Shown: one piece after another, positions 2,018 to 63,823 of the stretch
Layout of the letters: every line of letters starts with the position of its first letter
Position numbering within the stretch: the stretch's first letter is position 1
NCBI GenBank assembly: GCA_031546725.1
Contig: JAVBJZ010000007.1
Location: 788-64,787 of the forward strand
Direction of reading: 5' to 3'
Origin: Azospirillum sp.
GTDB taxonomy: Bacteria > Pseudomonadota > Alphaproteobacteria > Azospirillales > Azospirillaceae
DNA length: 64,000 bases
Made by a program: the position numbers and the translations under genes
The notes under the pieces: model-generated
Databases searched by the model: none
The model's input: the letters and a program-made list of their open reading frames with translations, nothing else
What the model was told of the DNA's origin: nothing

Positions 2018-2034
2018 AGAAAGGACCAAAGGCG

Positions 2035-2343: not shown

Positions 2344-2350
2344 TGACGTC

Positions 2351-4690: not shown

Positions 4691-4779
4691 GACAGGACGT
4701 GACCATGGTGAATGCAAAGCGGTCCTATACCCCGGAGGAGACGCTGCGTGCCAGGGGGGATTCGGCGATGAATTTACGG

Positions 4780-14010: not shown

Positions 14011-14014
14011 GGCC

Positions 14015-15577: not shown

Positions 15578-15589
15578 GGGAGGGCGACG

Positions 15590-45542: not shown

Positions 45543-45602
45543 GGCAAGGTGCGGTCACCGCAGTTTCGCTGCGACGACCGCACCGTCATCATACAGGAAG
45601 GA

Positions 45603-46762: not shown

Positions 46763-47029
46763 TTGCATCGACGCAAGAGCTGGCGGCTCCCCAAACGCCC
46801 GGCGTATTGTCCAGCCGTCCGCGCTGGCCGCCAGCGCCTGTGGAGCATCATTGCGTTGGTTTGGAAAATTACCGGCCTGTTGGCCCTGGCCTATTTGCTT
46901 TTGCTGGCGCGCAGCGCCTGGAAGCAAGGGGAAATCCGTCAGTATCTCTGGAGCTTAGCCATCATCGCCGGGATCCTCGCCTTCATCACCGCAGCGCTGC
47001 TGTTCACGGTGATGGTGAGCAACCAGTAA
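46763..47029 (+). CDS. small two-TM membrane protein
   Basis: Two hydrophobic segments (WKITGLLALAYLLLLA; LWSLAIIAGILAFITAALLFTVMV); true start probably downstream of 46763. Confidence 0.5.
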   Translation: MHRRKSWRLPKRPAYCPAVRAGRQRLWSIIALVWKITGLLALAYLLLLARSAWKQGEIRQYLWSLAIIAGILAFITAALLFTVMVSNQ

Positions 47030-47070
47030 ACACGCCGCCGGCGCTGGTGCAGCCAGCGCCGGCGGCCGGA

Positions 47071-48585
47071 TCAGATTTGCGCACGCTCGTGAGCAAGCCG
47101 CATCAGCACGTACTGGCGCATCATCTGGTTGCGAAAACGGTAGCGAAAACGCCCAGGCTCGGGCACCGCCGCCAAGACATTGCCGTGGTCTTCATCGGAT
47201 AACCGCTTGAGCATCCCATCAAGATCGGCAAAGACCGGCATGCCCTCGGGACCGGTCAGTTCTTTGGGATCGAAAACGCCGTATTCATCGGCCGGGCATA
47301 ACGCGGCGGCGTGCAGCACATCTTCCAACTCGACACGCCGGGCGCCGGCAAGCGCCCGATTGTAAGAGTCGACGATACCGCGTTCCGCCTCTTGCAGGCA
47401 GCGATTGGCCGCGTAAGCAAGATCGACGCGCTCAACGGTCGTCGCCTCCCGGCTGATAGCGCTGCGCGCCGCGTGCAGACCAAGCAATTGCGCATAATAG
47501 GGCAGCCCACGGACAAACTCCGCGATGCGGCGGACCACATCCGGCGCGAAGCCGATCCCCGCGTTCTCCCCTCCGGCTTGAATCAACCGCTCGATCTCTT
47601 TGTCAGTCATCAAGGGCAGGTGCACGGGCGCCAGTGACCGCTGAATCGAGGGGTGCTTGCCAAGCAACTGGTCAAGATTTTCGGCCACGCCGACGATCAG
47701 CAAGGTTACGGAGATTGAGCTGTCAGTCAGGTTTTTCAGCATTTCCGCGAGCTTGTTGCGAAAATCCTCGTCGGTGATGCGGTCGTATTCGTCGAGAATC
47801 AGCAACGCATGCGTGCCGTAGATACCGGCAAGCACCTCGTTCAGCTCGGTGACGCTGAAGCTACCCTCTGGCAACAGCTCGTTGAAGCTGGTGAAGGTGC
47901 GGCGCGCCGCGAAGGGGTTATCCATCCCCGAGCGGTAGTAGGTGGAGGGAATGCGCCGCAGTAAATGACGAAAACTGTCCTCGAAGCTCAACTCGGCGCT
48001 GCATGTCAGCTTGAGCGCCAAATACCCGGCTTGCGCCGCGATCTGCTCGATGGCGTTGGCCACGGACGTCTTGCCACGACCACGGTCACCGAACAGGATG
48101 ACATGCGCCCGCTCTTCCTCGATGGCCGAGATGATGCGCTTGAGCGCGGCAGTGCGGCCAACGAACAAGGCGTTCAGCGCCTGCTTTGGCCGGGTTGGCG
48201 TGAACGCCTCGCGCAGGCGACCGTTCATTTCCGGCGTCAACCCGGTCAACAGCGCCGGCGCCGTGCCGCGCGGTCCTCGCAGGCCGGTGTTTACCGGCAT
48301 GGTGAAGCGCGGCAGGTCGTGATCACCGCCGCCGGAACCAGCGTCGCCGAGTTGTCGGCCATGCTGGGTCGGCGTCATTCCCGCTCCGGGCACCGCACGC
48401 AACCGTGGCGGCCCACCCATGCTGACAGGGGACCGCAGGGGCCCCGAGGGTGATCCTGGAGCCCCCATCCCGGTGAAGCCTGCCGGATTCTCGCCCTCCT
48501 TGGCGCCCGGGGCGTTGAGGCCCGGACCGCCCGTAGCATCGTCGTCCACACCGGCGCTGCGCCGTTTCCGAAAAAAATTCCGCAT
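47071..48585 (-). CDS. AAA+ ATPase (ORC/Cdc6-like) with low-complexity N-terminal extension
   Basis: LREAFTP..P, FVGR, Walker A GDRGRGKT, Walker B LILDEYD, PYYAQLLG. Alternative start 48651. Confidence 0.87.
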   Translation of the reverse strand: MRNFFRKRRSAGVDDDATGGPGLNAPGAKEGENPAGFTGMGAPGSPSGPLRSPVSMGGPPRLRAVPGAGMTPTQHGRQLGDAGSGGGDHDLPRFTMPVNTGLRGPRGTAPALLTGLTPEMNGRLREAFTPTRPKQALNALFVGRTAALKRIISAIEEERAHVILFGDRGRGKTSVANAIEQIAAQAGYLALKLTCSAELSFEDSFRHLLRRIPSTYYRSGMDNPFAARRTFTSFNELLPEGSFSVTELNEVLAGIYGTHALLILDEYDRITDEDFRNKLAEMLKNLTDSSISVTLLIVGVAENLDQLLGKHPSIQRSLAPVHLPLMTDKEIERLIQAGGENAGIGFAPDVVRRIAEFVRGLPYYAQLLGLHAARSAISREATTVERVDLAYAANRCLQEAERGIVDSYNRALAGARRVELEDVLHAAALCPADEYGVFDPKELTGPEGMPVFADLDGMLKRLSDEDHGNVLAAVPEPGRFRYRFRNQMMRQYVLMRLAHERAQI

Positions 48586-48832
48586 TGCCCCTGCTTCCCG
48601 ACCATCGTCACCAAGCGCCGGCTCCACCTCGTGAGAGCCGGCTCCATTCAAATATTTAAGGATGCCGAGGCGTGGGAGGGGCTGCGAAATCGGATATTAT
48701 ACTGATGCGGATATGGGTCTGCGTACTCTTCAATTCCTGAATATAATTTTTGGCAGAGAAATGTAGTTCTTTCCTTCTATTGATCGTCAAGCCGGCGCTT
48801 GCCCCGCAGCCGAAAGCCCAAGCTTAGCCCCA

Positions 48833-48931
48833 TCAAAGGCCAAGCGCGTAACCAAACAGCGTCCAAGCGTACAGCGTGGCCAGCAACGCGATCAGGGTGA
48901 ACATCTCTTTCAGAAACTCGAGCATCGGCAT
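48833..48931 (-). CDS. 32-aa single-TM small protein (below the ORF-track cutoff)
   Basis: MPMLEFLKEMFTLIALLATLYAWTLFGYALGL*, with GAGGA 8 nt before the ATG. Confidence 0.6.
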   Translation of the reverse strand: MPMLEFLKEMFTLIALLATLYAWTLFGYALGL

Positions 48932-49137
48932 GGCGCTGTTCCTCATATCGCGTGAGAGCGCCGAGGCTGACAGAACGAATTGCGAACTTCAAGCGTTAAG
49001 TTTCCTCTGTGTTCCCTATATCACCCCTTCTTGTGCCTGCATCCGCCATACCCCCTCGATGTGAGAGGAACGCCTGCGCTGCTGGCCGGACCTTCAACCA
49101 CGGGGTAACGAACTTTGCTGCAATGCGGCGGCCAATC

Positions 49138-49187
49138 TGGCATGCCATTTTGTCGTATCCTGCCATAATGGCATTGCGAAAATGCCG
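49138..49187. promoter_or_regulatory. candidate enhancer (UAS) for a sigma54 activator
   Basis: TGCCATTTTGTCG (49143), TGCCATAATGGCA (49161, palindrome), TGCGAAAATGCCG (49175); TGGCATGCCA palindrome at 49138. Confidence 0.5.
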
Positions 49188-49242
49188 CAGGCTACAGCCC
49201 CTTGCGGTAAGGTAGGTTATCTTTCGAAGTATCGTGGCGATT

Positions 49243-49258
49243 TGGCCCGGAACTTGCT
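49243..49258 (+). promoter_or_regulatory. sigma54 (-24/-12) promoter
   Basis: TGGCCCGGAACTTGCT: GG-N10-GC spacing, 1 mismatch to TGGCAC-N5-TTGCW; a sigma54 activator is encoded in the same locus. Confidence 0.75.
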
Positions 49259-49294
49259 GCTATTTAGGCGACCAAATCAGGAGTAACCGCCGCC

Positions 49295-49546
49295 ATGACC
49301 GTGACGAGAAAGACAATATTGGTTTTGGCAGCCGTACTGGCTGTAGGGGTGATGGCTGATGGAGCTCGGGCTGCTGCGGATGCGCAGCCGGCGCAGGCCA
49401 TCAAAGCAACGACCGCGAACCCCACCAAGGTCGTGGACAATCCCGTCGCGACGCACACCCCCTGGTACACGCCAGCGGGCCGGCGCGGGATGCCCGCACC
49501 CTATGATCTGAAGAACCGGGTCACCGGGTTGCCCCCGCAAAAATAA
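49295..49546 (+). CDS. small secreted protein of unknown function
   Basis: Sec-type signal (RKTILVLAAVLAVGVMADGARA), AGGAG RBS at 49279-83, first gene after the sigma54 promoter. Confidence 0.7.
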   Translation: MTVTRKTILVLAAVLAVGVMADGARAAADAQPAQAIKATTANPTKVVDNPVATHTPWYTPAGRRGMPAPYDLKNRVTGLPPQK

Positions 49547-49667
49547 GTTCTGGCCTCTGATCCCTCGGGAAACACTGGCCATTTCTGCGGTTCCAACCGC
49601 CCATCAACAACAGATCTCGTGCTCCATCGAGACACCAATCCTACGACTGTCAAAAGAAAGATTTATC

Positions 49668-49967
<300 letters not shown>

Positions 49968-49979
49968 TTCTTCCTATTG

Positions 49980-50010
49980 GGGCGGCCTCAATCGAGGCCG
50001 CCCTTTGTTT
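49980..50010 (+). terminator. Rho-independent terminator between the Met-rich peptide and the cytochrome gene
   Basis: GGGCGGCCTC-AATC-GAGGCCGCCC followed by TTTGTTT. Confidence 0.8.
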
Positions 50011-50033
50011 CACTCCGTAACAACGGGTGTGCG

Positions 50034-50867
50034 ATGAACGTCGGGAGACTGCTCTCCGCCGCGATGGGGCTGTTGCTGTGTGGTGCAGCGATACCGGCCA
50101 CCGCCGCTGACTATCAGCGTGAAGTTTGGTCGCCTCTGCACTTGGCGCCAAACACCGCGAAAGCTACAAATGCTGAATGTCTTGCTTGCCACAGCGAGAT
50201 TCTACAAGACAAGATCCGCGAAGTCTCGCCAGCTGGCAAGAAAACATCGGATATAGGCCCGACGTGGTACCAGACTCTGGACACGTACAAGGGGACGCAG
50301 GAAACTTTCCATGCCCGGCATTTGACGACTGCTTATGCCAAGAAGGTTATGGACCTGAAGTGTTCGACCTGCCACACCGGCCATGACCCACGCGAAGAGT
50401 CCATGGCGCGCCCGCGGGTTGAAAAACAGGATGGCAAATGGACCGCCATTCCCGTTGAGACGACATTCCGCTTGCGCAAGCAGGTCAACCCCGAGACCAC
50501 ATGCCTCATGTGCCACGGGAAATTCCCGTTCGAGAACATGAGCCTGCCGGACGAGTGGTCGAAGATTCGGACCGACATGGAAAATGAGGACGCCAAGAAT
50601 GGCTGTCTGACCTGCCATGCCGAGCAAACCCGCACGAACCGTCACCAGGTCACTTATCTGAAGGCCGCGAACATCGAGAAGCTGGCAAAGGATGATTCCG
50701 ACGTTTGCTATGGCTGCCACGGCGGCCGTGCTTGGTATCGGCTGTCCTTCCCGTATCCGCGTCACGATTGGCCGGATATGCCCGCTGACGTTCCCGACTG
50801 GGCTACGGACCGGCCCAAGCAATCCGAAGCTCGATTCCGGCTGGATGCAGGGACCGCCAAGCACTGA
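50034..50867 (+). CDS. periplasmic pentaheme cytochrome c
   Basis: Signal peptide (ATA-AD); five CxxCH motifs: CLACH, CSTCH, CLMCH, CLTCH, CYGCH; no TM anchor. Confidence 0.9.
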   Translation: MNVGRLLSAAMGLLLCGAAIPATAADYQREVWSPLHLAPNTAKATNAECLACHSEILQDKIREVSPAGKKTSDIGPTWYQTLDTYKGTQETFHARHLTTAYAKKVMDLKCSTCHTGHDPREESMARPRVEKQDGKWTAIPVETTFRLRKQVNPETTCLMCHGKFPFENMSLPDEWSKIRTDMENEDAKNGCLTCHAEQTRTNRHQVTYLKAANIEKLAKDDSDVCYGCHGGRAWYRLSFPYPRHDWPDMPADVPDWATDRPKQSEARFRLDAGTAKH

Positions 50868-50885
50868 CGCCAGAGGAAACTCATT

Positions 50886-53429
50886 ATGATTAAAATCGAT
50901 CGGAAGGACCTTCTGGCGCGTGCTCTTGAATTGTCGCGTCGCGACTTGTTCAAGGTAAGCGCCGGAGCCGGCGCCGCCGCCGCCACGGGGTTGACGCCGT
51001 TGCGGCCCGCTCATGGTTTTGCTTACGAGCCCTACCCCAAGGACGATGAGCTCACCACGGTGGTGACGTCGTGCGCGCATAATTGCGGTTCGCGCCATAT
51101 GCTGGTGGCGCACAAGAAGGGGGATGTCATCGTCCGTTTGTCCACGGATGATGGCCGCGCTCAGGGTGACGCCTACGGGACCGACACGGCGGAAACGCCT
51201 CAGTTGCGGGCATGTCTGCGTGGACGGTCGTATCGTTCGCGTCTCTACAGCCCCGAGCGGTTGCTCTACCCCATGGTGCGGACGGGTGAGCGCGGCGAGG
51301 GTAAGTTCAAGCGGGTCTCCTGGGATCTGGCGCTGGACCTGATTGCCGAAAAGATGGTCCGGCTGAAGGAAAAATACGGCCCGACGGCGATTCTCGATCA
51401 ATCCTACGCCGGCGCGTCCTACGGCGTTCTGCACAAGTCGGATCAGATCGAAGGGCTGCTGGCCCGCTTCCTTGGTATCTTCGGCTGCCGCACCAGCTCC
51501 TGGTCGGTGCCCAGCTACCAGGGAACCACCTTCAGCTCCCGCATCACCTACGGCACCATCGAGGACGGCAACGAAGACGACGCCTTCGCCCACTCGAAGC
51601 TGATCATCATGTGGGGATGGAACCCGGCCTATACGTTCCACGGCGGCAACACCCACTGGTACATGCGCACAGCCAAACAGAATGGCTGCAAGTTCGTCGT
51701 CGTCGATCCCCAGTACACGGATGCGGCTGCGGCTTATGACGCCTGGTGGATCCCCATCAAGCCGAATACCGACGCGGCCATGATGGCCGGGATGGCGTAT
51801 TATATTTTTGTCAATGAACTGCAGGATCAGCAGTTCATCGCCCGCTTCTGCCAGGGCGTCGATCCCAGCACCATGCCGGGCTGGGCTCAGGGTAAGGAAA
51901 GCTTCAAGGAATACATCCTCGGCATGTCCGATGGTGTGCCCAAGACCCCGCAATGGGCCGCGGCCATTTGCGGTGTTCCGGCGGAAACCATCGCCAAGCT
52001 GGCGCATATGTACGCCGCGACCAAGCCGGCGGCTCTCAAGGCGTCGTGGGCTCCGGGCCGTAACGCCTATGGCGAGCAGTACAACCGTATGGCGGCCGCC
52101 CTGCAGGCGATCACCGGCAACATCGGTAAGCTCGGCGGTTGCGCTGAAGGCGTGGGCAAGGGCTGGCATTCCGAAGGCGTGGCCTACCCCTACGACGAGT
52201 ATTCGAACGTCTGGTATGCCGCGATCAAGTCTGACCGCTGGGCCCATTGCGTCCTCAACTACCCCAATGTCAAGCGTGAAGAGATTGGCTGTTGGGAGCG
52301 GAGCGATGCGCTGGACGGGAAGATTCCAGACATCCGGGGCATCTGGTGGCATGGTTCCAACTGGTTCAACCAGCTGACCAACATCAACAAAGAAATCGAA
52401 GCCATCAAGAAGCTGGATTTCGTGGTGTGCAATGACGCCACACTCACCAGCTCGGCGCTCTTTGCTGATTTCGTGCTGCCGGCCTGCACCCACTTTGAAC
52501 GGCACGATGTGGCGTTGCCCTGGTACAAGGGGCACTACTACATCCATCGTCCCAAAGTCATCGAGCCCTTGGGCGAAAGCCGCACCGACTTCCAGATCTT
52601 CACCGAACTGGCCTACCGTCTTGGCTATGGCGAGAAGTATAACCCACGCTCCAAGCGGGATTACTTCTATGACAACGAAGCCACGGACGAAGCCTATCTG
52701 AAGACGTGGTGGGAAGAAAAGGTGATGCACCATCAAGGCGTCACCGTGGGTTGGGAAGAGTTCAAGAGCAAGGGCGTCCACAAGTTCAAGTTCGACAAAC
52801 CGCATGTGGCTTTTCGTGCTCAGATCGAAGACGGCGTGCCGTTCCAGACCGCGTCTGGTAAGATTGAAATCCTATCGACCAGCCTGGCCAACATCACGGA
52901 TTGGACCAAGACCCGGTATGGTTATCCCATCCCGGCCATTCCCAAATGGATCGAACCGTGGGAATCCTTGAACCATCCCAAGGCCAAGGACTTCCCCTTC
53001 CATCTCGTCAGCCCGCACCCGCGTTGGCGGACCCACTCGATCTTCAACAACATTCCGTGGCTGCGGGAGACTTTTGAACAGGAAGTCACCATCAACGCAT
53101 CCGACGCCGCCAAGCTGGGGATCAACACCGGCGATACGGTGGAGTTGTGGAACGATCGCGGCAAAACCGTGGTCCCCGTCTATGTCACCGAGCGGTGCAT
53201 GCCCGGCGTTCTGGTCCTGCACGAAGGTGCGTGGCTGGACATGGTTGACGGCGTTGATCGAGCCGGCAACCCGGATGTCCTGACCAAGGATGATCCCAGT
53301 CCGGCAGGGGCTTTCGCCTACAACACCGTTCTGTGCAACATCCGCAAGACCGACCTGGACCACCATCCCGGCTGGGACAAGACCGTAACCGCCCGCGCCG
53401 CCAAATGGCGGCGCGACACCAGAGCTTGA
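50886..53429 (+). CDS. DmsA-clade molybdopterin oxidoreductase catalytic subunit (Tat-exported)
   Basis: Tat motif SRRDLFK; C63-x3-C67-x3-H71...RAC110LRGRS; Ser210 aligns with the E. coli DmsA Mo-ligand Ser; PIKPNTDAAM, ADFVLP, RTHS motifs. Confidence 0.93.
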   Translation: MIKIDRKDLLARALELSRRDLFKVSAGAGAAAATGLTPLRPAHGFAYEPYPKDDELTTVVTSCAHNCGSRHMLVAHKKGDVIVRLSTDDGRAQGDAYGTDTAETPQLRACLRGRSYRSRLYSPERLLYPMVRTGERGEGKFKRVSWDLALDLIAEKMVRLKEKYGPTAILDQSYAGASYGVLHKSDQIEGLLARFLGIFGCRTSSWSVPSYQGTTFSSRITYGTIEDGNEDDAFAHSKLIIMWGWNPAYTFHGGNTHWYMRTAKQNGCKFVVVDPQYTDAAAAYDAWWIPIKPNTDAAMMAGMAYYIFVNELQDQQFIARFCQGVDPSTMPGWAQGKESFKEYILGMSDGVPKTPQWAAAICGVPAETIAKLAHMYAATKPAALKASWAPGRNAYGEQYNRMAAALQAITGNIGKLGGCAEGVGKGWHSEGVAYPYDEYSNVWYAAIKSDRWAHCVLNYPNVKREEIGCWERSDALDGKIPDIRGIWWHGSNWFNQLTNINKEIEAIKKLDFVVCNDATLTSSALFADFVLPACTHFERHDVALPWYKGHYYIHRPKVIEPLGESRTDFQIFTELAYRLGYGEKYNPRSKRDYFYDNEATDEAYLKTWWEEKVMHHQGVTVGWEEFKSKGVHKFKFDKPHVAFRAQIEDGVPFQTASGKIEILSTSLANITDWTKTRYGYPIPAIPKWIEPWESLNHPKAKDFPFHLVSPHPRWRTHSIFNNIPWLRETFEQEVTINASDAAKLGINTGDTVELWNDRGKTVVPVYVTERCMPGVLVLHEGAWLDMVDGVDRAGNPDVLTKDDPSPAGAFAYNTVLCNIRKTDLDHHPGWDKTVTARAAKWRRDTRA

Positions 53430-53446
53430 TGTGAGGGGTGGCGAGA

Positions 53447-54121
53447 ATGACGACCCAGCCCAAATCGAAGATGGAACTTCGGCAAGCGGCTCAAAAAGCT
53501 GTCGAAGACCGTAAGACCTACACGCCCGTGGTGCCCAAAGAGCAGTTCGGTTTCATCCACAACAATGTGGAATGCATCGGCTGCCGGGCCTGCGAGATTG
53601 CGTGCAAGGATAAGAACGGCCTGCCACCCGGTCCGCGGTTCCGCCGCGTGCTGTATGTGGAAGGCGGGACTTTCCCTGAGGTCTATGCCTACAAGGTCAA
53701 TCTGTCTTGCAACCATTGCGCCGAACCGGCGTGCTTGCCGACCTGCCCCACCGGGGCGATCACCAAGCGGGCCGACAATGGCGTGGTGGACATCGACTCC
53801 ACCTTGTGTATCGGGTGTCGCCGGTGTGAGGCGGCCTGTCCTTATGGGGCCCCGCAGTGGGATCCTGAGGCGCAGGTCATTAAAAAGTGCAACATGTGCA
53901 TCGATGAACTCGATGCTGGCCGCAAACCCTATTGCGTTATGGCCTGCATGATGCGCGTGTTGGACATTGGTCCTATCGACCAGCTGCGGGAGGGAACATA
54001 CCCAACCAAGGCCATGGGGCCGAATGACAAGCCGGTTCGTCGTGTCAAGGACATGTCGAATCCGGAACTGACCAACGCCTCGATTGTGTTCATCGCCCAT
54101 CCGAAAGCCCGAGTAGACTAA
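53447..54121 (+). CDS. DmsB-like 4x[4Fe-4S] electron transfer subunit
   Basis: CIGCRACEIAC, CNHCAEPACLPTCP, CIGCRRCEAACP, CNMC...CVMAC. Confidence 0.94.
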   Translation: MTTQPKSKMELRQAAQKAVEDRKTYTPVVPKEQFGFIHNNVECIGCRACEIACKDKNGLPPGPRFRRVLYVEGGTFPEVYAYKVNLSCNHCAEPACLPTCPTGAITKRADNGVVDIDSTLCIGCRRCEAACPYGAPQWDPEAQVIKKCNMCIDELDAGRKPYCVMACMMRVLDIGPIDQLREGTYPTKAMGPNDKPVRRVKDMSNPELTNASIVFIAHPKARVD

Positions 54122-54837
54122 TGGTTGAAGCCGCCGAGTTAGAGGTTAGCCTGCGTCATGCCATCGCTGCCGATTTGGAAATGTTGGCGGCCATACATGA
54201 TCGCGAGCCAGACGCCGAGATGGTGGGGGTGTTGCAAAGCAGCAAATTCCCACTCTGCTTGACCCTTCCCCTCGATGATCCCGAGGCGGTGGTGGCCGGG
54301 CAAGTCATGGCGGCGATCCTCGACTCATTCGGTTCCGCATTGTCCGCCGAGGACGCCGACGAATTGGCGGCGTCCTACGCGGATGTTTATCTGCTCAACG
54401 GGTGCGGCTGTTCTCCCTATGCCTCACCGTGGCTGGATAAAGACGGGCTGGTGCGCCAGGAACCCATGCTTGACGTGCGGGCCTGGTTTGCCCGTCATCA
54501 CTTGCGCGTGCCCGACTCAGCGCTGCGTGCTGATGATCATTTGTCCATGCTTTTGCTTTTCCTGGCTCATCTGATCCGCTCGGGGGACGAGAAAGCGGGG
54601 GACGAGAAAACGGGAGAGGTGGAAGCCGCCGAATTCCTCAGCCGCTATGTGACGAATTGGCTTCCCTCTTTCGCCAAAGCGCTGGTCAGTCGGCATGGCC
54701 CTCCCTTCTATGCGGCTTTGGCGGTCCTGACCTCGGCCTATACCGAGGCGTTGGCCGCCCTGCTCCCTGAAGTGGAGGTTCCCGTGGCGGCTCCGCCGGA
54801 GCCGGTCTGCGCGCCTCGTGATCATGTGCATTTTTAA
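54121..54837 (+). CDS. TorD/DmsD family molybdoenzyme chaperone
   Basis: SPYASPWL, DDHLSMLLLFLAHL, FL..Y...WLPSF, FYAALA.LT. Confidence 0.9.
   Translation: MVEAAELEVSLRHAIAADLEMLAAIHDREPDAEMVGVLQSSKFPLCLTLPLDDPEAVVAGQVMAAILDSFGSALSAEDADELAASYADVYLLNGCGCSPYASPWLDKDGLVRQEPMLDVRAWFARHHLRVPDSALRADDHLSMLLLFLAHLIRSGDEKAGDEKTGEVEAAEFLSRYVTNWLPSFAKALVSRHGPPFYAALAVLTSAYTEALAALLPEVEVPVAAPPEPVCAPRDHVHF
54583..54612. repeat. 15-bp in-frame duplication in the chaperone gene (GDEKA/GDEKT)
   Basis: GGGGACGAGAAAGCG / GGGGACGAGAAAACG. Confidence 0.8.
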
Positions 54838-54920
54838 AGGCCAGACGTAAATTCTGAAGACTGAGCATAGACAGGCCAACACCAAGTACTATCCATCCTA
54901 TTCATCGTGAATCTATTTGT

Positions 54921-54969
54921 TTACAGCGGATTTCAGTTCAGCTTGAACCGAAATCCGCTGTAATTTTTT
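54921..54969 (+). terminator. long-stem Rho-independent terminator ending the oxidoreductase operon
   Basis: TTACAGCGGATTTC...GAAATCCGCTGTAA perfect 14-bp stem plus inner GTTCA/TGAAC, followed by TTTTTT. Confidence 0.85.
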
Positions 54970-55111
54970 GCCCGCCCTTCAAGATGAAGGCTTTTTTACT
55001 TAATGCACAGGATGCAAGCATATAAGGCTTGAATCCATCCGGCTCGATCGCGGTAGACTCGAAAACTCCGGCAGATCTTTCCCGGCTGATTTTTCAAGGT
55101 GGTGTCACGTT

Positions 55112-57007
55112 ATGGGATCGTGGGTAACCGCAAGGTTGGGGCGGGTTTTTGGCTTTGCTCTCGGGCTTGTGTTGTTGTCGGCGCTGCTGGTGTTTCTGGC
55201 GCTGTTCATCGGGGCCTATCAGTGGCAGATCGGGCATGAGCGCACCCGGCTGTCGGAACAGACGGCGCTGTTGTTGCAGGCGGCGCTGGAGAACGCCATG
55301 CTGAAGCGTGACCTGCCCGGTCTGCAAACGATCGTCGATCGCTTGGGACAGCAGGAAGGGGTTCGGCAGGTTCTCATCGTCAATCCCAGCGGAGAGGTGC
55401 GGTTCGCCTCCAACCGCCAGATGCTCAATCATCATTTCCTGACCGACAATGATTCCGGGTGCCGGGAATGCCATCAACAGAACACGGCGCGTGGCCGGAC
55501 ACTGTTTATGGTGGATAAAAACGGGCAAGAGGTTTTGCGCGGCGTCGATCCCGTCCGCAATCGGGAGCCGTGCCAACAATGCCACGGCCCGTTGAGCGAA
55601 CACCCGATCAACGGCGTTTTGATCATCGATTATGACGCCGCGGCCATTCGGACGACGGCGCTGCATGGCGCGCTGGCCTTTTTAGGGGCGGGGGCCATGG
55701 TGGTTCTGCTGGTGACCACGACGCTGTGGTGGCTGTTGCGCCGCCGGGTTCTTGACCGGCTGGAGGTGTTGGGGGCGGCCAACCGCGCCGTCGAAAGGGG
55801 CGTGCTGGACGTTCGGGTTCCCGAGGACGGCAGGGATGAAATCGCTGATCTCGCCCGCGGCTTCAATGAGATGACCGAGACGTTGCGCGCCCGCATGCGC
55901 GACATCCGTGACCGTGAAGCCTTCCTCCAGGCGATGATCGACGCCGTGCCCGATGGATTGCGTGTCATCGCCGCCAACAGCATGATCGTGACGGCGAACC
56001 GCACCTACCGTCGTCAATTGGGTCTGGATGACAGCCAGCCGTTGGCGGGCCAGACCTGCTACAACTCCAGCCACGGCGCTTCCGAGCCCTGTCCTCCCAC
56101 CCTGATCGCCTGCCCGCTGAATATTCTGGCTCGTGAAAAAGAGCCGCTGAAGACCGTGCATCAGCATATCCGCCGGGATGGCTCCACCGTCCATATGGAA
56201 GTCTACGCCGCCCCCATGATGCTGGAACAACAGGGGCGGGAGAGCTTTTATGTGGTCGAATCCATCCGTGATCTTAGCGAGGATATACGTTTTTCCCACG
56301 GGCAGAAGCTGTCTTCCGTCGGGCAGTTGGCGGCGGGGGTCGCCCATGAGATCCGCAACCCGCTCGCATCGATCCGCCTGGCTTTGGAAGGGCTGCTCCG
56401 CGATATCGAAGCCGGCGGGACCAGCGCTGAGGTTTTGACCTATTTACGGCTGGTGGATGGCCAGATCGACAAATGCATCGATGTCAGCAACCGCTTGCTA
56501 AAGCTTTCCGCCGTCGGGGGAGAGCAAAAGACCCTTGTGGATATTGGGCAAGCGGTTGAGGAAACCCTCTCCTTGGTTCACTGGCATGCCGAAACCTTGG
56601 GCATTGAGATTATCTTCACCCCCGATCCCAGTTCTCCCCGGATTTTGGCGGTGGATGGCGATGTGCGGATGGTGGCGTTGAATCTGATCCAGAATTCCTT
56701 TCATTCCATGCCCACGGGCGGTCGCCTGCTGGTCGATGTCCGTTCCGACGCCAAGCAGGTGGCGCTGATTGTCACGGACACCGGGGTGGGCATAAAACCC
56801 GAGTATCGCCGCCACATTTTTGAGCCATTCTTCAGTCATCGCGCCGACACCGAACAAGGAACGGGTTTGGGCCTGGCTATTTGCAAGAGCATCGTTGAAG
56901 GATTGTCCGGCTCCATTCACGTGGAAAGCCAACCGGGACAAGGCGCTTGCTTCACCGTCCTGTTTCCATCAGCGGAAGCAGCCATGGCTGCGGAGAATCG
57001 GGTATGA
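55112..57007 (+). CDS. sensor histidine kinase with periplasmic di-heme c motifs, HAMP and Cys-containing PAS
   Basis: TM1-periplasm (CRECH, CQQCH)-TM2-HAMP-PAS; H-box AHEIRNPL; N, G1 (DTGVGI), F and G2 (GTGLGL) boxes. Confidence 0.93.
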   Translation: MGSWVTARLGRVFGFALGLVLLSALLVFLALFIGAYQWQIGHERTRLSEQTALLLQAALENAMLKRDLPGLQTIVDRLGQQEGVRQVLIVNPSGEVRFASNRQMLNHHFLTDNDSGCRECHQQNTARGRTLFMVDKNGQEVLRGVDPVRNREPCQQCHGPLSEHPINGVLIIDYDAAAIRTTALHGALAFLGAGAMVVLLVTTTLWWLLRRRVLDRLEVLGAANRAVERGVLDVRVPEDGRDEIADLARGFNEMTETLRARMRDIRDREAFLQAMIDAVPDGLRVIAANSMIVTANRTYRRQLGLDDSQPLAGQTCYNSSHGASEPCPPTLIACPLNILAREKEPLKTVHQHIRRDGSTVHMEVYAAPMMLEQQGRESFYVVESIRDLSEDIRFSHGQKLSSVGQLAAGVAHEIRNPLASIRLALEGLLRDIEAGGTSAEVLTYLRLVDGQIDKCIDVSNRLLKLSAVGGEQKTLVDIGQAVEETLSLVHWHAETLGIEIIFTPDPSSPRILAVDGDVRMVALNLIQNSFHSMPTGGRLLVDVRSDAKQVALIVTDTGVGIKPEYRRHIFEPFFSHRADTEQGTGLGLAICKSIVEGLSGSIHVESQPGQGACFTVLFPSAEAAMAAENRV

Positions 57008-58350
57008 CACGGCGTATCCTGGTTATTGAAGATGACGCCATCCTCAATACTTTGCTGTGCAACCATCTGACCCGCGTCGGCTATGACGCCAGCGCGGCGC
57101 GGCGCTGGAGCGAAGCCGAGGCTTGGCTTGCCGCCGAATCCGCCGACCTCATCATCCTGGATGTCAATCTTCCCGACGCCGACGGCCTGGAAATGCTGCC
57201 GCATCTGGCGCCGCATCAACCGGTGATCATTCTCACCGCCTATGGATCGGTGCAGACCGCTGTCCGGGCGGTCAAAGCCGGCGCCGCCGAATATTTGGTC
57301 AAGCCCATCAACATCGATGAGCTGGAAGTCGTGGTCAGCCGCGCCATCGAAATGGCCACCATCAAACGGGAACACAGCTTCATCAAAGACCGGCTGGCGG
57401 TGCGCCCGGATAATTTGATGGTGGGAGCCGGGCGTGGGATCAGCGAGGTCCGCCGGTTGATCGAGGCGGTGGCGCCCTCGGACATGACGGTCTTGATCCA
57501 GGGCGAAAGCGGCGCTGGAAAAGAACTGGTGGCCCAGGCGATCCATGCCCGCTCCAAGCGGGACCGGCATACCTTTGTGGCGGTGGATTGCTGCACCTTG
57601 CAACGGACCTTGTTCGAGTCCGAACTGTTCGGTCACGAAAAAGGGGCGTTTACCGGGGCCGATCGGCAAAAGAAAGGGCTGATCGAGGGGGCCGAGGACG
57701 GGACCCTGTTTCTCGACGAAATCGGCGAAATCGAACCGGCCATCCAAGCCAAACTGTTGCGCGTCCTGGAAACCGGGCGCTACCGACGGCTGGGAGGAAC
57801 CAAGGATCTCAGCGCCAATGTCCGCATTGTCGCCGCGACCAACCGAGACTTAGCGGCGATGAGCCGGGATGGCCAGTTCCGACCGGATTTATTCTACCGC
57901 TTGAACGGCTTCGTCATCCATGTCCCCCCCCTGCGTGAGCGGCGCGAGGATATTTCTCAACTGGCGCAACATTTTGTCCGCAATCATGATTTTTCTCGTC
58001 GAATCAACAAGGAAATTTCTCAGTCAGCGCTTGATGTTCTCAAGAAATACAATTGGCCCGGCAACATCCGGGAATTAAGGAATTTTGTTGAGCGCGCCAT
58101 TATTTTATCAGGGGATGCAGAAATAATAGGTGAGGAATTTTTTTCTTTCCATGGACCTCAAAAATCATCTCAGCCAACAACTGAAGTTATGGATATTTTT
58201 GCCAATGATCCCCCATTGGAAGAGATAGAACGCTATTATATTGCTTATCTTCTGAAGAAATACGGTGGGCATCGGTCCTTGGTTGCGCAAAAACTGGGGA
58301 TCAGCGAGCGGAATATCTATCGGCTGATTCGCCGTTATGAGCTGGACTGA
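57004..58350 (+). CDS. sigma54-dependent (NtrC family) response regulator
   Basis: REC (EDD, ILDVNLP), [31 protein letters not shown], Fis HTH. ATGA-coupled to the kinase. Confidence 0.95.
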
Positions 58351-59370
58351 TCAACCCCCGACCACCGCGCCGAGAGTCCTTACGAGTCTTTCCTGCGCCG
58401 CGAAATCCGCGGGCAAGCCAAAACGCAGCCATTCCCGCTGATCCTCGAAAGACCGCACCATCACCCCGGCGGCGCCCAGGGCCTTGACCATCTCCGGCGC
58501 TCGGCTGTGGCTGGCCAGCCGAAACAGCGGCGTGCCACCCAGCACCACCAAGCCAAGCGCAGCCAGGCATCGATCCAGCTCCGCCGCAGCCTCTACCAAC
58601 CGGCAGCGCGTGGCGGCGATCCACGGAGCATCGCGCAACGCCTGCGTGGCCACCGTCAGCACGGGCCCCGGCGCCGCCCAAGGGCCAAAGGCATCCCGCA
58701 GCGTCTCCGCCAGCCTGGGCTCCGTCACCGCGAAGCCAAGCCGCGCGCCGGCCAGACCGAAGAATTTGCCAAAGGAACGCAGCACCACCAACCCTGGCCG
58801 GTCCACCAGACCGGCGACGCTGATCTCGGGCGTCACCTCGGCGAACGCCTCGTCCACGATCAAGACCCCGCCACGTCCGGCGAATTGTTCGGCCAGCGCC
58901 AGGACATCCGTGGGAGCGATGATGCGCCCGTCGGGGTTGTTCGGGTTGACGATCACCCCGATAGCGCCGTCCATATCCTCACGCCGGTCGACCGTTCGTA
59001 CGGTATGACCGGCCAGGGCCCAGGCGCGGGCGTGCTCGGCGTATGTCGGCCCCAGCACCGTCACCCGCCCCGGCTTCCACAGGCGGGGCATCATCTGAAT
59101 CAGCGCCTGCGATCCCGGCGCCACGACGATGTGCGCCGCCGACGGCGCCCCGTATGCGTCGCTGGCGGCGCTTCGCAACGCCAGCGAAGCGCTGCGGTTG
59201 GGCAGGCGCGCCCAGGCGTCCAAGGAAATCGCCGGAAGCGGATAAGGCCAGGGGTTGATGCCGGTGGACAGGTCCACCCATGGCTCGGGCGCCTGTGGAA
59301 ACGCCGCGCGCGCCGCATCCAGGTCACCACCATGCAGGACTCGCTTGGTCCCATCCGCCGTTTCGGCCAT
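58351..59370 (-). CDS. cobD: threonine-phosphate decarboxylase
   Basis: LHGGDL, DLSTGINPWPYP, VNPNNPDG, VDEAF, LRSFGKFFGLAGARLG. Confidence 0.93.
   Translation of the reverse strand: MAETADGTKRVLHGGDLDAARAAFPQAPEPWVDLSTGINPWPYPLPAISLDAWARLPNRSASLALRSAASDAYGAPSAAHIVVAPGSQALIQMMPRLWKPGRVTVLGPTYAEHARAWALAGHTVRTVDRREDMDGAIGVIVNPNNPDGRIIAPTDVLALAEQFAGRGGVLIVDEAFAEVTPEISVAGLVDRPGLVVLRSFGKFFGLAGARLGFAVTEPRLAETLRDAFGPWAAPGPVLTVATQALRDAPWIAATRCRLVEAAAELDRCLAALGLVVLGGTPLFRLASHSRAPEMVKALGAAGVMVRSFEDQREWLRFGLPADFAAQERLVRTLGAVVGG

Positions 59371-62329: not shown

Positions 62330-63823
<1,494 letters not shown>

Follow-up and report, generated by a model that had tools for sequence, protein, structure and literature searches.

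A sigma-54-controlled proteobacterial operon encoding a secreted Gly-Met-Ser/Gly triplet protein and a periplasmic, cytochrome-fed molybdenum S-oxide-type reductase

Gene content and control elements of the locus

The locus described here lies in a 64,000-nucleotide stretch of Azospirillum sp. DNA (the window), and all the elements which a first-pass annotation had listed from the letters alone were found in its sequence (Table 1). That annotation had placed a sigma-54 promoter at position 49,138. A promoter is indeed present, but the element at that position lacks GC at -12 and forms an enhancer-type palindrome, and the best -24/-12 element (TGGCCCGGAACTTGCT) ends 37 nt before the first gene. 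Promoter scores of at least 13 occur in 23 of 45 related loci and in 0 of 45 sequences in each of two controls, and scores of at least 12 in 34 of the 45 against 6 and 1 in the controls. The element stands upstream of the small-protein and Met-rich genes, and its distance from the latter (about 430-530 nt) is the same in most loci. Moreover, 10 of 29 related loci carry the sequence TGCCA-N3-TGGCA at roughly -160 and -95 relative to the promoter, with 17 sites observed against about 0.2 expected. The palindromes are probable binding sites of the sigma-54 activator.

Table 1. Features of the operon and its control region, in window coordinates
Feature	Position	Strand	Description
Enhancer-like palindromes upstream of promoter	49138..49173	+	TGGCATGCCA (49138-49147) and TGCCATAATGGCA (49161-49173)
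Sigma-54 promoter (-24 GG / -12 GC)	49243..49258	+	TGGCCCGGAACTTGCT; weight-matrix score 13.6 of 14.6
Small secreted protein, 83 aa	49295..49546	+	Divergent, shortened member of the conserved ~100 aa family 'small X'
Secreted Gly-Met-Ser/Gly repeat protein, 99 aa	49668..49967	+	Sec signal peptide ending AFA|QG
GC-rich hairpin, 11 bp stem, T-rich tail	49979..50014 (hairpin 49979-50004)	+	Between Met-rich and cytochrome genes; T tract weak
Periplasmic pentaheme c-type cytochrome, 277 aa	50034..50867	+	Five CxxCH motifs
Tat-exported Mo-bisPGD catalytic subunit, 847 aa	50886..53429	+	Tat signal SRRDLFK; Ser210 ligand
DmsB-like FeS subunit, 227 aa	53438..54121	+	Four [4Fe-4S] motifs, no signal peptide
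TorD/DmsD-family maturation chaperone, 238 aa	54121..54837	+	PF02613, E = 1e-21
Terminator-like hairpin and T run	54976..55000	+	Marks end of structural operon
Sensor histidine kinase, 631 aa	55112..57007	+	TM, periplasmic heme-c domain, TM, HAMP, PAS, HisKA, HATPase
Sigma-54-dependent response regulator	57004..58350 (listed ORF 56947-58350)	+	Receiver, AAA+ sigma-54 interaction domain, Fis-type HTH

The first gene encodes what had been noted simply as a small secreted protein. It is present, and it can be added that it belongs to a conserved but unannotated family with the C-terminal motif WYTPF..PGM.G.YD(I/L)R.WH, comprising 268 clusters at 50% identity, all of them unnamed and outside the models of Pfam and NCBIfam. 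Some members occur as fusions in which a membrane-anchored monoheme cytochrome c comes first, which suggests that the small protein may serve in docking or as an adaptor. The second gene encodes the Met-rich protein, with 26 Met in total and, as first counted, 25 after the signal peptide, in a mature chain of 78 residues. The mature chains of 43 homologues contain 39% Gly, 27% Met and 15% Ser. An unbroken G-X-Y register covers a median of 89% of the chain, with Met at position X in 92% of triplets, and the register persists where Met is replaced (GQK, GQQ). Length varies by repeat expansion from about 60 to 435 aa, and long versions are interrupted by short aromatic hairpin-like spacers (YFKITPQGQIFFYPAS, WVCTQWT).

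The reductase genes follow, with the pentaheme cytochrome, DmsB-like subunit and TorD/DmsD chaperone all in place as annotated. The cytochrome matches NrfB-type pentaheme and NapC/NirT models only weakly, has no match among PDB sequences, and is the presumed electron donor to the FeS subunit. Its description as soluble is plausible for the protein in the window, given the AxA-type site at the end of its signal peptide, but does not hold for many relatives, which are TM-tethered or fused to an anchored monoheme cytochrome c. The Tat signal and Ser ligand claimed for the catalytic subunit were confirmed. Ser210 aligns with the Mo-ligand Ser147 of Rhodobacter DMSO reductase (DorA), and Tyr174 with DorA Tyr114, while an invariant Gly replaces Trp116; the idea of a wider funnel rests on this one aligned residue. 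An N-terminal cluster motif reads C63-x3-C67-x3-H71...C110. The subunit scores 622 bits against TIGR02166, under the cutoff of 777.7, and shares 36% identity with E. coli DmsA and 74-83% with relatives in three proteobacterial classes. It belongs to a distinct clade adjoining DmsA/YnfE. Its predicted structure has a pLDDT of 41, too low for use. The FeS subunit scores 196 bits against TIGR02951, under the cutoff of 214.1, and is probably co-exported with the Tat-signal subunit.

Hairpins are also present at both annotated terminators, the first with a weak T tract and the second with a T run. Most loci carry a hairpin like the first one behind the stop codon of the Met-rich gene, with z < -2 in 29 of 46, and the one in the window is probably a partial terminator or an mRNA-stabilising 3' end. 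Downstream of the structural genes come the kinase and then the sigma-54 activator, as first described. The kinase carries the two periplasmic CxxCH motifs claimed for it, at residues 117 and 154, although only the second is conserved (C154-x2-C-H158 in 54 of 54 homologues, the first in 7 of 54). The regulator (PF00158, E = 2e-65) likely starts at the ATG at 57004, overlapping the kinase stop codon. The shared promoter, the shared enhancer motif and the adjacent kinase and activator count in favour of the operon forming one regulon.

Conservation and transcript levels

The operon was compared across 80 species-level genomes carrying the same reductase subclade (Mo subunit 74-83% identity). The cytochrome lies directly upstream of the Mo subunit in 80/80 loci, and the order cytochrome, Mo subunit, FeS subunit is equally invariant (80/80). 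The chaperone gene is found in 73, the kinase is linked to the operon in 55, and the regulator is present in 53. The synteny of Met-rich genes with homologous reductases, by which the first-pass annotation had proposed to check its reading, proved strong: where at least 1.5 kb of DNA upstream of the cytochrome was available, a same-strand Gly-Met-X gene lies just upstream of it in 47 of 52 loci. With one chance Met-dense match in 511 kb of control sequence, this arrangement is far above chance and is not a random neighbourhood. A Met-dense G-M-X gene also lies upstream in 19 of the 28 loci whose upstream DNA is incomplete. In the other five of the 52 loci, the gene is absent from the 3.5 kb upstream of the cytochrome, while the small protein and the reductase are kept; therefore, the enzyme may not depend absolutely on the Met-rich protein.

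The operon is carried by hundreds of proteobacterial species. Its loci range over alpha-, beta- and gammaproteobacteria, one of them on a conjugative plasmid of a cultured Rhodobacter, and the organism names of the 80 loci include marine symbionts as well as sludge, groundwater and soil bacteria. Many hosts are, from their names, denitrifiers with copper enzymes. In 14 loci a gene for a Trx-like/NHL lipoprotein is found downstream. Anchored MsrA-MsrB genes lie 3' of the regulator in three loci (L013, L018, L023), and an MsrB gene in another (L020). No published description of a Gly-Met/molybdoenzyme operon was found in the literature searched, in agreement with the first-pass annotation, and all database names are generic.

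Expression was followed in metatranscriptome contigs of a lucinid-clam symbiont, with contigs from four runs aligned to a Ca. Thiodiazotropha locus. Contig depth is a crude proxy for expression and is inflated within the repeat, although the small-protein gene is non-repetitive. The 5' genes are about 10-300 times deeper than the reductase genes, and the fall is located at the conserved hairpin after the Met-rich gene. In X5 and X6 the small-protein gene reaches 1e5-4e5, whereas the reductase genes stay at about 1e3-4e3; the corresponding depths in X9 and X10 are 350-420 and 15-48. Read-through contigs join the Met-rich gene to the cytochrome gene across the hairpin. The whole operon lies far above neighbouring genes in two samples, and these data support co-expression of the Met-rich and reductase genes in a relative. 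Furthermore, the reductase genes stand about 10-100 times above the kinase/regulator genes and downstream neighbours in X5 and X6, but at baseline in X9 and X12, which counts in favour of an inducible operon. The genes dmsB and dmsD, not necessarily those of this operon, have been reported among the top-100 lucinid-symbiont transcripts in the low-oxygen upwelling season (PMC12172469).

A proposed rechargeable methionine sink and competing readings

The proposal to which we give about even credence is that the polymer is a methionine sink made in bulk, whose sulfoxides are re-reduced by the Ser-ligated molybdoenzyme with respiratory electrons. It builds on observed gene content, conserved synteny, promoter, expression gradient, Ser ligand and Tat signal; we infer what the enzyme reduces, which oxidant is involved, what the sensor detects, how the electrons travel and what the small protein does. 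The first-pass interpretation is partly supported, and within it enzyme action on the oxidised peptide, hypochlorite as the oxidant and oxidant sensing by the heme kinase stay hypothetical. The heme-c kinase and the sigma-54 activator would turn on the single promoter. The first transcript segment, encoding the small protein and the polymer, would accumulate far above the rest because the hairpin passes only a fraction of transcripts. The polymer would leave via Sec and load the periplasm with exposed thioethers, small residues flanking each Met. Oxidants would then turn its Met into methionine sulfoxide, which the Tat-exported Mo/FeS enzyme would return to Met. The respiratory chain would supply the electrons, probably by way of bc1 and c-type cytochromes, to the pentaheme cytochrome, which would pass them on to the enzyme.

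An S-oxide or methionine-sulfoxide function fits the Ser ligand, the residue matching Tyr114, export by Tat and, in 3-4 loci, MsrAB genes beside the regulator. DorA-type enzymes can reduce protein-bound methionine sulfoxide (PMC7402097), and MrpX with YedY/MsrP provides a precedent for sacrificial-Met logic (PMC4436054). Against the sink, DmsA-family membership is a poor guide to substrate; Salmonella paralogues of DmsA were recently reported as sulfate reductases (PMC13524816). The loci without a Met-rich gene also weigh against it, as do G-M-X repeats occasionally found away from any reductase (P0246, P0256).

Possible, though rather unlikely, is that the enzyme respires some small oxide or oxyanion, for example iodate, chlorate, bromate, selenate, DMSO or TMAO, and that the polymer, not itself a substrate, only quenches a reactive product that arises in the active site, such as halite or hypohalous acid. 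Among named NCBIfam groups the reductase comes closest to 'DMSO/selenate family reductase', Shewanella Dms-type enzymes have been tied to iodate and bromate reduction (review PMC13488963), and chlorate reduction in E. coli yields Met-oxidising chlorite (PMC9805139). MrpX itself was discovered as a by-product quencher of (per)chlorate respiration (PMC4436054). In 9 loci the cytochrome is fused to an anchored class I cytochrome c, which would suit an energy-conserving respiratory branch. The reductases kept without a Met-rich gene also speak for this reading, as do the abundant symbiont dmsB/dmsD transcripts, with the reservation about their origin given above. However, the 80 loci share no conserved chlorite dismutase or peroxidase, nor any other enzyme that would handle the product, the hosts are too varied for an obvious shared rare oxyanion, and polymer mRNA at about 10-300 times enzyme mRNA seems beyond the need of a by-product trap. 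Moreover, the sulfoxides would still need a reductase, and no other is conserved in the locus.

Less probable is a periplasmic Cu(I)/Ag(I) sponge that shields the exported FeS/Mo enzyme from copper, or handles copper, with only an indirect link to the reductase. Met at every third residue gives a continuous MxxMxxM, and M-x-x-M spacing is a hallmark of segments that bind Cu(I), such as the Met motifs of Ctr1, CopA and CueO; the denitrifying hosts with copper enzymes agree with such a role. Nevertheless, the usual companions of Met in periplasmic copper sites are scarce in the homologues (His 0.3%, Asp 0.5%, Cys 0.6%), and conserved cop, cus, pco or multicopper-oxidase genes are missing from the 80 loci. 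The conserved partners are only redox proteins of an S-oxide-type reductase, and control lies with a heme-c kinase and a sigma-54 activator rather than a metal sensor of the CopRS/CusRS or CueR type.

A structural or chaperone-like polymer is somewhat more doubtful still. Here the Gly-X-Y chain would form a rod of collagen-like or polyproline-II type, or be the periplasmic equivalent of the (GGM)n tail of GroEL, scaffolding or escorting the reductase with Met redox incidental. The survival of the register without Met and the aromatic spacers favour it, as do precomputed Pfam Collagen matches and weak ones to models of collagen-like adhesins, and GroEL GGM tails form polyproline-II helices (PMC12571646). 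Yet a stable triple helix is unlikely with 1.4% Pro and few charged residues (about 5%), a length set by repeat expansion is odd for a fitted scaffold, and position X is specifically Met. Finally, the suggestion that the Met-rich ORF is no gene but a non-coding GC-rich tandem repeat open by accident, for which speak an 18-nt array (GGCATGGGCGGCATGTCC, 12.8 copies at 49734-49955) and other open frames (MPDMPP..., HGRHVR...), is effectively refuted by the in-frame Sec signal peptide in 46 loci, the frame kept constant in three classes despite differing DNA, abundant transcription downstream of the sigma-54 promoter, and Ser drawn from both codon families (TCN and AGY in 36 of 43 genes), which shows selection at the protein level.

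Relation to known systems

Several known systems share parts of this operon. DmsABC and YnfEFGH, the membrane-bound DMSO/selenate reductases of Enterobacteria, likewise export a Ser-ligated catalytic subunit through Tat, which has a cluster motif at its N-terminus, and combine it with a DmsB-type partner of four clusters and a chaperone of the TorD/DmsD family. However, the low identity of the present Mo subunit to E. coli DmsA and the sub-cutoff scores of both subunits set them apart, His71 stands in for the third Cys of the FS0 motif, and a pentaheme c-type cytochrome takes the place of a DmsC/NrfD-type quinol-oxidising anchor gene. DorCA and TorCA resemble the operon in their periplasmic Ser-ligated S-/N-oxide reductase, pentaheme c-type cytochrome supply and TorD-like chaperone, and Rhodobacter DorA is the best solved-structure match of the Mo subunit (E = 2.5e-78). 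In contrast to the present enzyme, DorA and TorA are monomeric, with neither FS0 cluster nor FeS subunit. TorC and DorC, each about 390 aa long, are quinol dehydrogenases of the NapC/NirT family, whereas the 277-aa cytochrome falls below that family's threshold, and regulation is by TorSR/DorSR instead of sigma-54.

PcrABCD of perchlorate reducers is controlled by the kinase PcrS and the sigma-54-dependent PcrR. It too is a soluble A-B molybdoenzyme of the periplasm that has a multiheme cytochrome c and a TorD-like chaperone at its side, and it lies on mobile DNA beside a Met-rich-peptide defence. PcrA is a type II, Asp-ligated enzyme, while the present subunit has Ser at the ligand position and scores 241 bits against the type II model TIGR03479 (cutoff 985); the present locus also has no cld gene. 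The kinase sensor recalls the Geobacter heme-c PAS sensors (GSU0582 / GSU0935, PDB 3B42), with one conserved CxxCH in a periplasmic domain between two TM helices and a conserved Met in the preceding helix. The match to 3B42 is weak (E = 0.31), the Geobacter proteins have chemoreceptor output in place of a histidine kinase, and the window's copy adds the second, non-conserved CxxCH.

The closest likeness in logic is MrpX with YedYZ (MsrPQ) of Azospira suillum PS, where a secreted Met-rich protein in excess and a periplasmic respiratory-fed molybdoenzyme form one small induced regulon (PMC4436054), proposed to work by sacrificial Met oxidation and enzymatic re-reduction. MrpX contains 20% Met and 44% charged residues (PMC4436054), against the strict G-M-X triplets and low charge found here. 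MsrP belongs to the sulfite-oxidase family and works with heme-b MsrQ, as opposed to a DMSO-reductase (Mo-bisPGD) family enzyme with an FeS subunit and a pentaheme cytochrome; its system uses the ECF sigma/anti-sigma pair SigF/NrsF instead of a heme-c kinase and sigma-54 activator, and the present operon has an extra conserved small protein. The operon is best explained as a mobile, periplasmic, sigma-54-controlled module, and by this analogy its best reading is that it would repeat the MrpX/MsrP logic, on a presumed methionine-sulfoxide substrate, with unrelated parts.

Gene organisation and secreted proteins of the operon

Every gene that the first-pass annotation had named in this locus was recovered by the ORF listing and the Pfam and NCBIfam scans. 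The GC content of the locus is 59-60% as compared with 65-68% in its flanks, and an Rfam scan of window positions 47000-59000 matched no known RNA.

Features of the operon and its regulatory genes in the window
Feature	Position	Strand	Basis or remark
Palindrome TGGCATGCCA, predicted enhancer site	49138 onward	+	start of the finding in the first-pass annotation
TGCCATAATGGCA, predicted enhancer site	49161-49173	+	3' of palindrome TGGCATGCCA
Sigma-54 promoter TGGCCCGGAACTTGCT	49243-49258	+	best match, 37 nt before first gene
Small secreted ORF	49295-49546	+	ORF listing
Met-rich ORF, 99 aa	49668-49967	+	ORF listing; Sec signal peptide (…AFA|QG)
GC hairpin, 11-bp stem, weak T tract	49979-50014	+	after Met-rich gene
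Cytochrome, five CxxCH motifs	50034-50867	+	ORF listing, Pfam/NCBIfam
Molybdopterin oxidoreductase (Mo subunit), Tat signal	50886-53429	+	Pfam/NCBIfam
Ferredoxin-like FeS subunit, four clusters	53438-54121	+	Pfam/NCBIfam
TorD-family chaperone	54121-54837	+	Pfam/NCBIfam
Hairpin and T run	54976-55000	+	3' of chaperone gene
Histidine kinase, TM-heme-c-TM-HAMP-PAS	55112-57007	+	Pfam/NCBIfam
Sigma-54 activator	likely start 57004, overlapping kinase stop codon	+	Pfam/NCBIfam

A STAND/AAA NTPase of 526 aa (window 47071-48651, minus strand) is encoded directly upstream of the operon, and LuxR-type response-regulator-like ORFs lie at window 43433-44077 and 45603-46337, both on the minus strand. GC falls to 0.55-0.57 in window 44000-48700, which may be the edge of an acquired segment. 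Elsewhere, six same-strand ORFs of 677, 322, 221, 477, 520, and 178 aa (window 8920-16126, plus strand), most with very hydrophobic N-termini, look by their sizes and N-termini like a membrane-bound hydrogenase-4/formate-hydrogenlyase or Mrp-type complex. Additionally, a methyl-accepting chemotaxis protein with two PAS domains is encoded at window 62330-63823 (plus strand) in a markedly AT-richer segment (GC 0.52).

The mature Met-rich chain of the window consists of G-M-S, G-M-G, and G-M-H/Q triplets only, with 25 Met in 78 residues, and is encoded by an 18-nt tandem array of 12.8 copies. Its counterparts in related loci of other genomes range from about 60 to 435 aa with up to 125 Met. The mature chains of 43 such proteins are composed of 38.6% Gly, 26.6% Met, 15.4% Ser, and 1.4% Pro, and charged residues make up about 5%. 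Unbroken Gly-X-Y register, counted in runs of at least four triplets, covers a median of 89% of each mature chain, and Met occupies position X in 2330 of 2524 triplets (92%), Y being mostly Ser or Gly. Beta-proteobacterial versions (GMSGMSGMEGQK…) keep Gly at each third residue, and long versions are broken up by the short aromatic motifs YFKITPQGQIFFYPAS, WVCTQWT, and GxWVWVPS. For Ser, TCN codons (1028) and AGY codons (260) are both in use, and 36 of 43 genes contain both families. Selection thus acts on the frame at the protein level, and the array is a genuine gene, which excludes a non-coding tandem repeat. In most loci a stable hairpin, a predicted attenuator, comes after the stop codon of the Met-rich gene (z < -2 in 29 of 46), several having U tracts.

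The Pfam scan of the window Met-rich protein gave no match and no globular domain. Precomputed PF01391 (collagen) matches exist on its relatives, and the Met-rich proteins weakly match Scl/Lcl collagen-like models, owing to the Gly-X-Y pattern. Long uninterrupted Gly-X-Y repeats are indeed shared with bacterial collagen-like proteins; unlike these, the Met-rich chain is poor in Pro and charged residues and has no trimerisation domain, a composition that argues against a stable triple helix. The (GGM)n tail of GroEL, reported as polyproline-II-like (PMC12571646), is a nearer physical analogue than collagen.

The repeat array is also open in other frames, giving (MPDMPP)n, (HAAHAG)n, and (HGRHVR)n. 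Spurious ORFs cover it at window 49650-50151 (minus) and 49619-50020 (plus), and long ones occur in every related locus, making the array a trap for gene callers. Further G-M-X genes were also met. A Sedimenticolaceae genome carries a second Gly-Met-Asn/Ser repeat gene (L070:2691-3659, 322 aa, 76 Met) adjoining the kinase gene about 3 kb upstream of the canonical copy. P0246 (L082:7001-7345) is a 114-aa secreted G-M-X protein whose tail is rich in Lys and whose gene has no reductase in its vicinity, and P0256 (L084:470-970) has a GM-rich N-terminus fused to DUF1236 beside clpB. A phmmer search with the repeat protein gave 20 matches, few because of composition correction, and one of three examined lay in canonical operon context, so the share of G-M-X proteins beside this reductase is anecdotal.

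In related loci, the interval between promoter and Met-rich gene is occupied by the gene for a conserved, secreted protein (about 100 aa) with the motif …IAG..P..RP..AP.I…PYP.SL.FL.DQG.WYTPF..PGM.G.YD(I/L)R.WH, of which the 83-aa ORF of the window is a shortened, divergent member. The family forms 268 clusters at 50% identity, all nameless, and no Pfam or NCBIfam model was found for it. Dechloromonas-type loci show the order Met-rich, small protein, cytochrome. In five loci no Met-rich gene was found within the 3.5 kb preceding the cytochrome, and the small protein is still encoded immediately ahead of the cytochrome. Moreover, in P0304, P0356, and P0363 the small protein is attached to the C-terminus of a TM-anchored class I monoheme cytochrome c plus linker, and in P0289, P0291, P0294, and P0316 a TM helix followed by a long Ala/Pro/Lys linker tethers it; such forms hint at docking of electron donors to the reductase complex. 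The AlphaFold2 model was poor and mostly coil (pLDDT 70, pTM 0.37). Judged by its arrangements, the small protein is probably part of the electron-transfer assembly, as a docking or adaptor element.

Reductase, electron entry, and regulation

By its matches to PF00384 and PF01568, the Mo subunit belongs to the DMSO-reductase family; it carries a Tat signal (PF10518 match, motif SRRDLFK) and an N-terminal cluster motif, C63-x3-C67-x3-H71…C110. Its Ser210 aligns with the Mo-ligand Ser147 and Tyr174 with Tyr114 of Rhodobacter DMSO reductase (DorA), and Gly176 replaces Trp116 of that enzyme; none of the three residues varies among 14 homologues drawn from three classes. The best model, TIGR02166 (DmsA/YnfE), gives 622 bits, below its cutoff of 777.7, PRK14990 (DmsA) gives 463 against a cutoff of 1600, and identity to E. 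coli DmsA is 36%. The Mo subunit is accordingly placed in a putative clade of its own next to DmsA/YnfE, with active-site residues of the S-/N-oxide type. Models for type II (perchlorate/chlorate/nitrate), TorA, PhsA, TtrA, and ArrA enzymes all score far below cutoffs, for instance TorA at 282-296 bits (cutoffs 909-1465) and the type II model TIGR03479 at 241 bits (cutoff 985). A PcrABCD perchlorate type, a TorCA type, and a tetrathionate/thiosulfate type are ruled out by HMM scores and the Ser ligand. A model of the Mo subunit built from a 14-sequence alignment was poor (pLDDT 41).

Several known systems share some of these features. As in DmsABC/YnfEFGH, the Mo subunit combines a Ser ligand with a Tat signal; unlike in those systems, both subunits fall under the family cutoffs (FeS subunit 196 bits against 214.1 for TIGR02951), and a pentaheme c-type cytochrome stands where DmsABC has its menaquinol-oxidising membrane anchor. 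No DmsC/NrfD-type anchor was found among the ORFs at 49138-58350 or among the families conserved in the best 80 of at least 573 related loci. The TorCAD/DorCAD enzymes are monomeric, whereas a DmsB-like subunit is encoded in all of these best 80 loci, and the cytochrome stays below the cutoff for the NapC/NirT family (PF03264, 18.6 against 24.1 bits). The type II enzymes (Pcr, Clr, Ser, Ddh, Ebd, Nar) are Asp-ligated, in contrast to the Ser found here. A PDB sequence search with the cytochrome gave no match, and in nine loci the cytochrome itself bears an N-terminal anchored class I monoheme cytochrome c module. Electrons may enter the reductase from the bc1/cytochrome c level.

A sigma-54 promoter had been listed in a finding that starts at 49138. 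Its presence is upheld, and the best -24/-12 element lies further downstream, at 49243-49258. The palindromes upstream of that element are best read as predicted enhancer sites for the sigma-54 activator; 10 of 29 related loci carry TGCCA-N3-TGGCA some 160 and 95 nt ahead of the promoter, 17 sites in all against 0.2 expected. The strict consensus TGGCAC-N5-TTGC with at most one mismatch did no better than shuffles across the window, and a first stringent scan gave promoters in 12 of 48 loci only, so these scans were replaced by a weight matrix (maximum 14.6) with two controls. Scores of at least 13 were reached in 23 of 45 loci versus 0 of 45 in each control, and of at least 12 in 34 of 45 versus 6 and 1. 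The distance from promoter to Met-rich start codon is usually 430-530 nt in related loci.

Both heme-c motifs reported for the periplasmic part of the kinase are present; conservation is confined to the second (C154…H158), found in 54 of 54 homologues, with both motifs in 7. The heme-c domain weakly resembles Geobacter single-heme PAS sensors (3B42, E = 0.31).

Distribution and expression in relatives

Homologues of the Mo subunit at 75-83% identity are abundant under generic or automatic names ('molybdopterin-dependent oxidoreductase', 'anaerobic dimethyl sulfoxide reductase subunit A'). A one-genome-per-species scan gave at least 573 encoding stretches, and the best 80 of these were analysed, to which the following counts refer. 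The carriers belong to the Rhodospirillales, Hyphomicrobiales, and Rhodobacterales, to the Rhodocyclales/Burkholderiales (Dechloromonas, Azonexus, Castellaniella, Methyloversatilis), and to the Competibacteraceae, Thiotrichales, Sedimenticola, and the lucinid symbionts Ca. Thiodiazotropha. Cytochrome, Mo, and FeS genes stand together in 80/80 loci; chaperone (73/80), kinase (55/80), and activator (53/80) counts are lowered because many contigs end within the locus. A Met-dense stretch was defined as a same-strand coding segment with 8 or more Met per 40 aa, no further than 3.5 kb ahead of the cytochrome. Such a stretch was present in 47 of the 52 loci for which 1.5 kb or more of upstream sequence was available and in 19 of the 28 with less, as against one chance match in 511 kb of downstream sequence. 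The expected co-occurrence of a Met-rich gene with this reductase subclade and pentaheme cytochrome is thereby borne out. The density scan was adopted because other searches undercount: tblastn with the window peptide found only 14/80 loci, and a (GMx) pattern of at least four units missed the beta-proteobacterial GMSGMSGQK variants. In all-against-all clustering, low-complexity and antisense ORFs fell together, and only well-behaved clusters were used.

The complete operon, with all genes 'hypothetical' or generically named, is also carried by the conjugative plasmid pEJ01 of the cultured Rhodobacter xanthinilyticus LPB0142. This copy and the GC contrast in the window point to horizontal spread. 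Other cultured carriers are Azospirillum rugosum IMMIB AFH-6, Dechloromonas sp. CZR5, Sedimentimonas flavescens B57, and Ruixingdingia sedimenti LG-4.

Several accompanying genes were observed. A cytoplasmic protein of about 355 aa follows the TorD gene in 41 of the best 80 loci (e.g., L069:5277-6344) and is absent from the window operon. It has two 4Fe-4S dicluster domains and extra Cys motifs, is called '4Fe-4S binding protein' in pEJ01, and may be a NapF-like maturation factor. Genes for anchored MsrA-MsrB fusions (L013:9973-11160, L018:17284-18426, and L023:10226-11416, all minus strand) or MsrB alone (L020:10450-10932) lie directly after the sigma-54 regulator gene and convergent to it. 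A lipoprotein with a thioredoxin-like/AhpC-TSA domain and NHL repeats (L031:14426-16018 and 13 other gammaproteobacterial loci) is encoded downstream of the operon on the same strand in Thiodiazotropha and Sedimenticola-type loci. Furthermore, the sigma-54 promoter is separated from the divergent kinase gene by a gene for a secreted protein of about 280-290 aa without a Pfam match (L036:5043-5888, plus strand, and cluster 16, 11 gammaproteobacterial loci); in the two samples with induced operon, the depth of this gene in L036 was raised as well, at about 700-4800 versus 28-132 for the kinase.

As no public sequencing run was found to contain window sequence, expression was read in relatives, chiefly from metatranscriptome contigs at locus L036 of Ca. 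Thiodiazotropha taylori. Contig depth is a crude measure that is inflated inside the repeat, and the non-repetitive small-protein gene was used.

Word depths of metatranscriptome contigs along locus L036 in runs X5, X6, X9, X10, and X12
Region	X5/X6	X9, X10, X12
Just upstream of promoter	244 (X6)	85 (X9); 0 (X10)
Small-protein gene, non-repetitive	1e5-4e5	350-420 (X9, X10)
Reductase genes	about 1e3-4e3	about 30 (X9); 15-48 (X10)
Kinase / regulator	28 / 132	near reductase level (X9, X12)
Downstream neighbours	1-40	near reductase level (X9, X12)

Transcription in L036 begins at the sigma-54 promoter, and strong induction of the operon is confined to some of the samples. By contig depth, the first two operon genes exceed the enzyme genes about 10-300-fold, and in some natural samples at least the operon lies 3-4 orders of magnitude over neighbour genes. 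A contig spanning L036 7914-9669 indicates read-through from the Met-rich into the cytochrome gene. The Dechloromonas version is transcribed in activated-sludge metatranscriptomes, at a coverage too thin, and too confounded by shared repeat words, for quantification. In lucinid symbionts, dmsB and dmsD, which may be the genes of this operon, are reported among the top-100 transcripts of the upwelling season (PMC12172469).

Proposed function and relation to known systems

Because a thioether-rich secreted polymer is tightly linked with an S-oxide-type molybdoenzyme across classes, we infer that methionine sulfoxide on the Gly-Met polymer would be the substrate of the Ser-ligated Mo enzyme, which would be a simple explanation of that linkage. 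This reading agrees with their shared sigma-54 regulon and with polymer mRNA far outnumbering enzyme mRNA. Small residues around every Met, together with Gly in place of Trp, would ease access of a backbone-bound sulfoxide to the buried Mo centre. Weak guilt by association comes from the MsrA-MsrB genes in three to four loci and from the Trx-like lipoprotein gene found in 14. A precedent for such Met-sponge logic is MrpX with MsrP (PMC4436054).

A serious rival is a respiratory reductase for small oxyanions or oxides, whose reactive product the polymer quenches; it draws on the DmsA/YnfE kinship of the Mo subunit, on electron input via cytochrome c, and on the five loci in which no Met-rich gene precedes the cytochrome, and is possible, if on the unlikely side. 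PMC13524816 reports Salmonella DmsA paralogues as sulfate reductases, which makes substrate calls by family membership unsafe. The MxxM spacing would suit a Cu(I)/Ag(I) sponge, but the partner proteins and regulator do not fit and His, Asp, and Cys are lacking in the polymer, so this role is quite improbable. A structural or chaperone-like polymer, fitting the Gly-X-Y register, is highly improbable with Pro nearly absent and Met so dominant at position X.

The polymer as substrate of the Mo enzyme could be extended to a proteinaceous redox mediator, in which Met/MetSO cycling funnels reactive oxidants (hypohalous acids, chlorite, peroxides, peroxynitrite, or halate-reduction products) into the respiratory chain, a proposal that is distinctly doubtful. 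Electrons would pass from bc1 through cytochrome c and the pentaheme cytochrome to the Mo enzyme, the small protein would dock electron donors, and the kinase, with His/Met-type heme c, would serve as a sensor of the periplasmic redox or oxidation state. If true, detoxification would double as respiration, possibly energy-conserving, the cell 'breathing' oxidants via a sacrificial polymer.

The operon resembles MrpX/MsrPQ in that a secreted Met-rich protein is encoded with a reductase, and the sacrificial-peptide logic claimed in the first-pass annotation is to that extent retained. The parts are not the same: peptide composition, enzyme family, electron wire, and regulator all differ. The Gly-Met chain is set apart from MrpX by its very different composition, and neither a sulfite-oxidase-family MsrP nor a heme-b MsrQ was found in the operon or its conserved neighbours, in agreement with the molybdoenzyme family, distinct from that of MsrP, annotated before. 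Likewise, SigF/NrsF and HprSR are replaced by the adjoining HAMP-PAS heme-c-motif kinase and sigma-54 activator with a -24/-12 promoter, as had been proposed for a heme-based sensor. The literature searched gave no published description of this operon, consistent with the earlier statement that none was known, and the database names are all generic.

To our knowledge, MrpX with MsrP is the sole rechargeable 'methionine sponge' described so far, and it has been regarded as a niche adjunct of (per)chlorate respiration and some pathogens. The present operon pairs a sacrificial Met protein with a Mo reductase from non-homologous components and is far more widely spread. The logic appears to have arisen independently here: peptide and molybdoenzyme come from unrelated families, a c-type cytochrome serves as the wire, and the sigma-54 circuit is heme-based. 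The apparently horizontal spread of the operon extends over several hundred alpha-, beta-, and gammaproteobacterial species, among them symbionts of animals, phosphate- and glycogen-accumulating organisms of wastewater, and bacteria associated with plants. Two or more protein families without a Pfam or NCBIfam model are defined by the operon, as is one DmsA-like clade. As cultured carriers exist, the predicted function is directly testable, and the strict G-M-X design offers a simple natural substrate for the study of Mo enzymes acting on peptide-bound sulfoxides.
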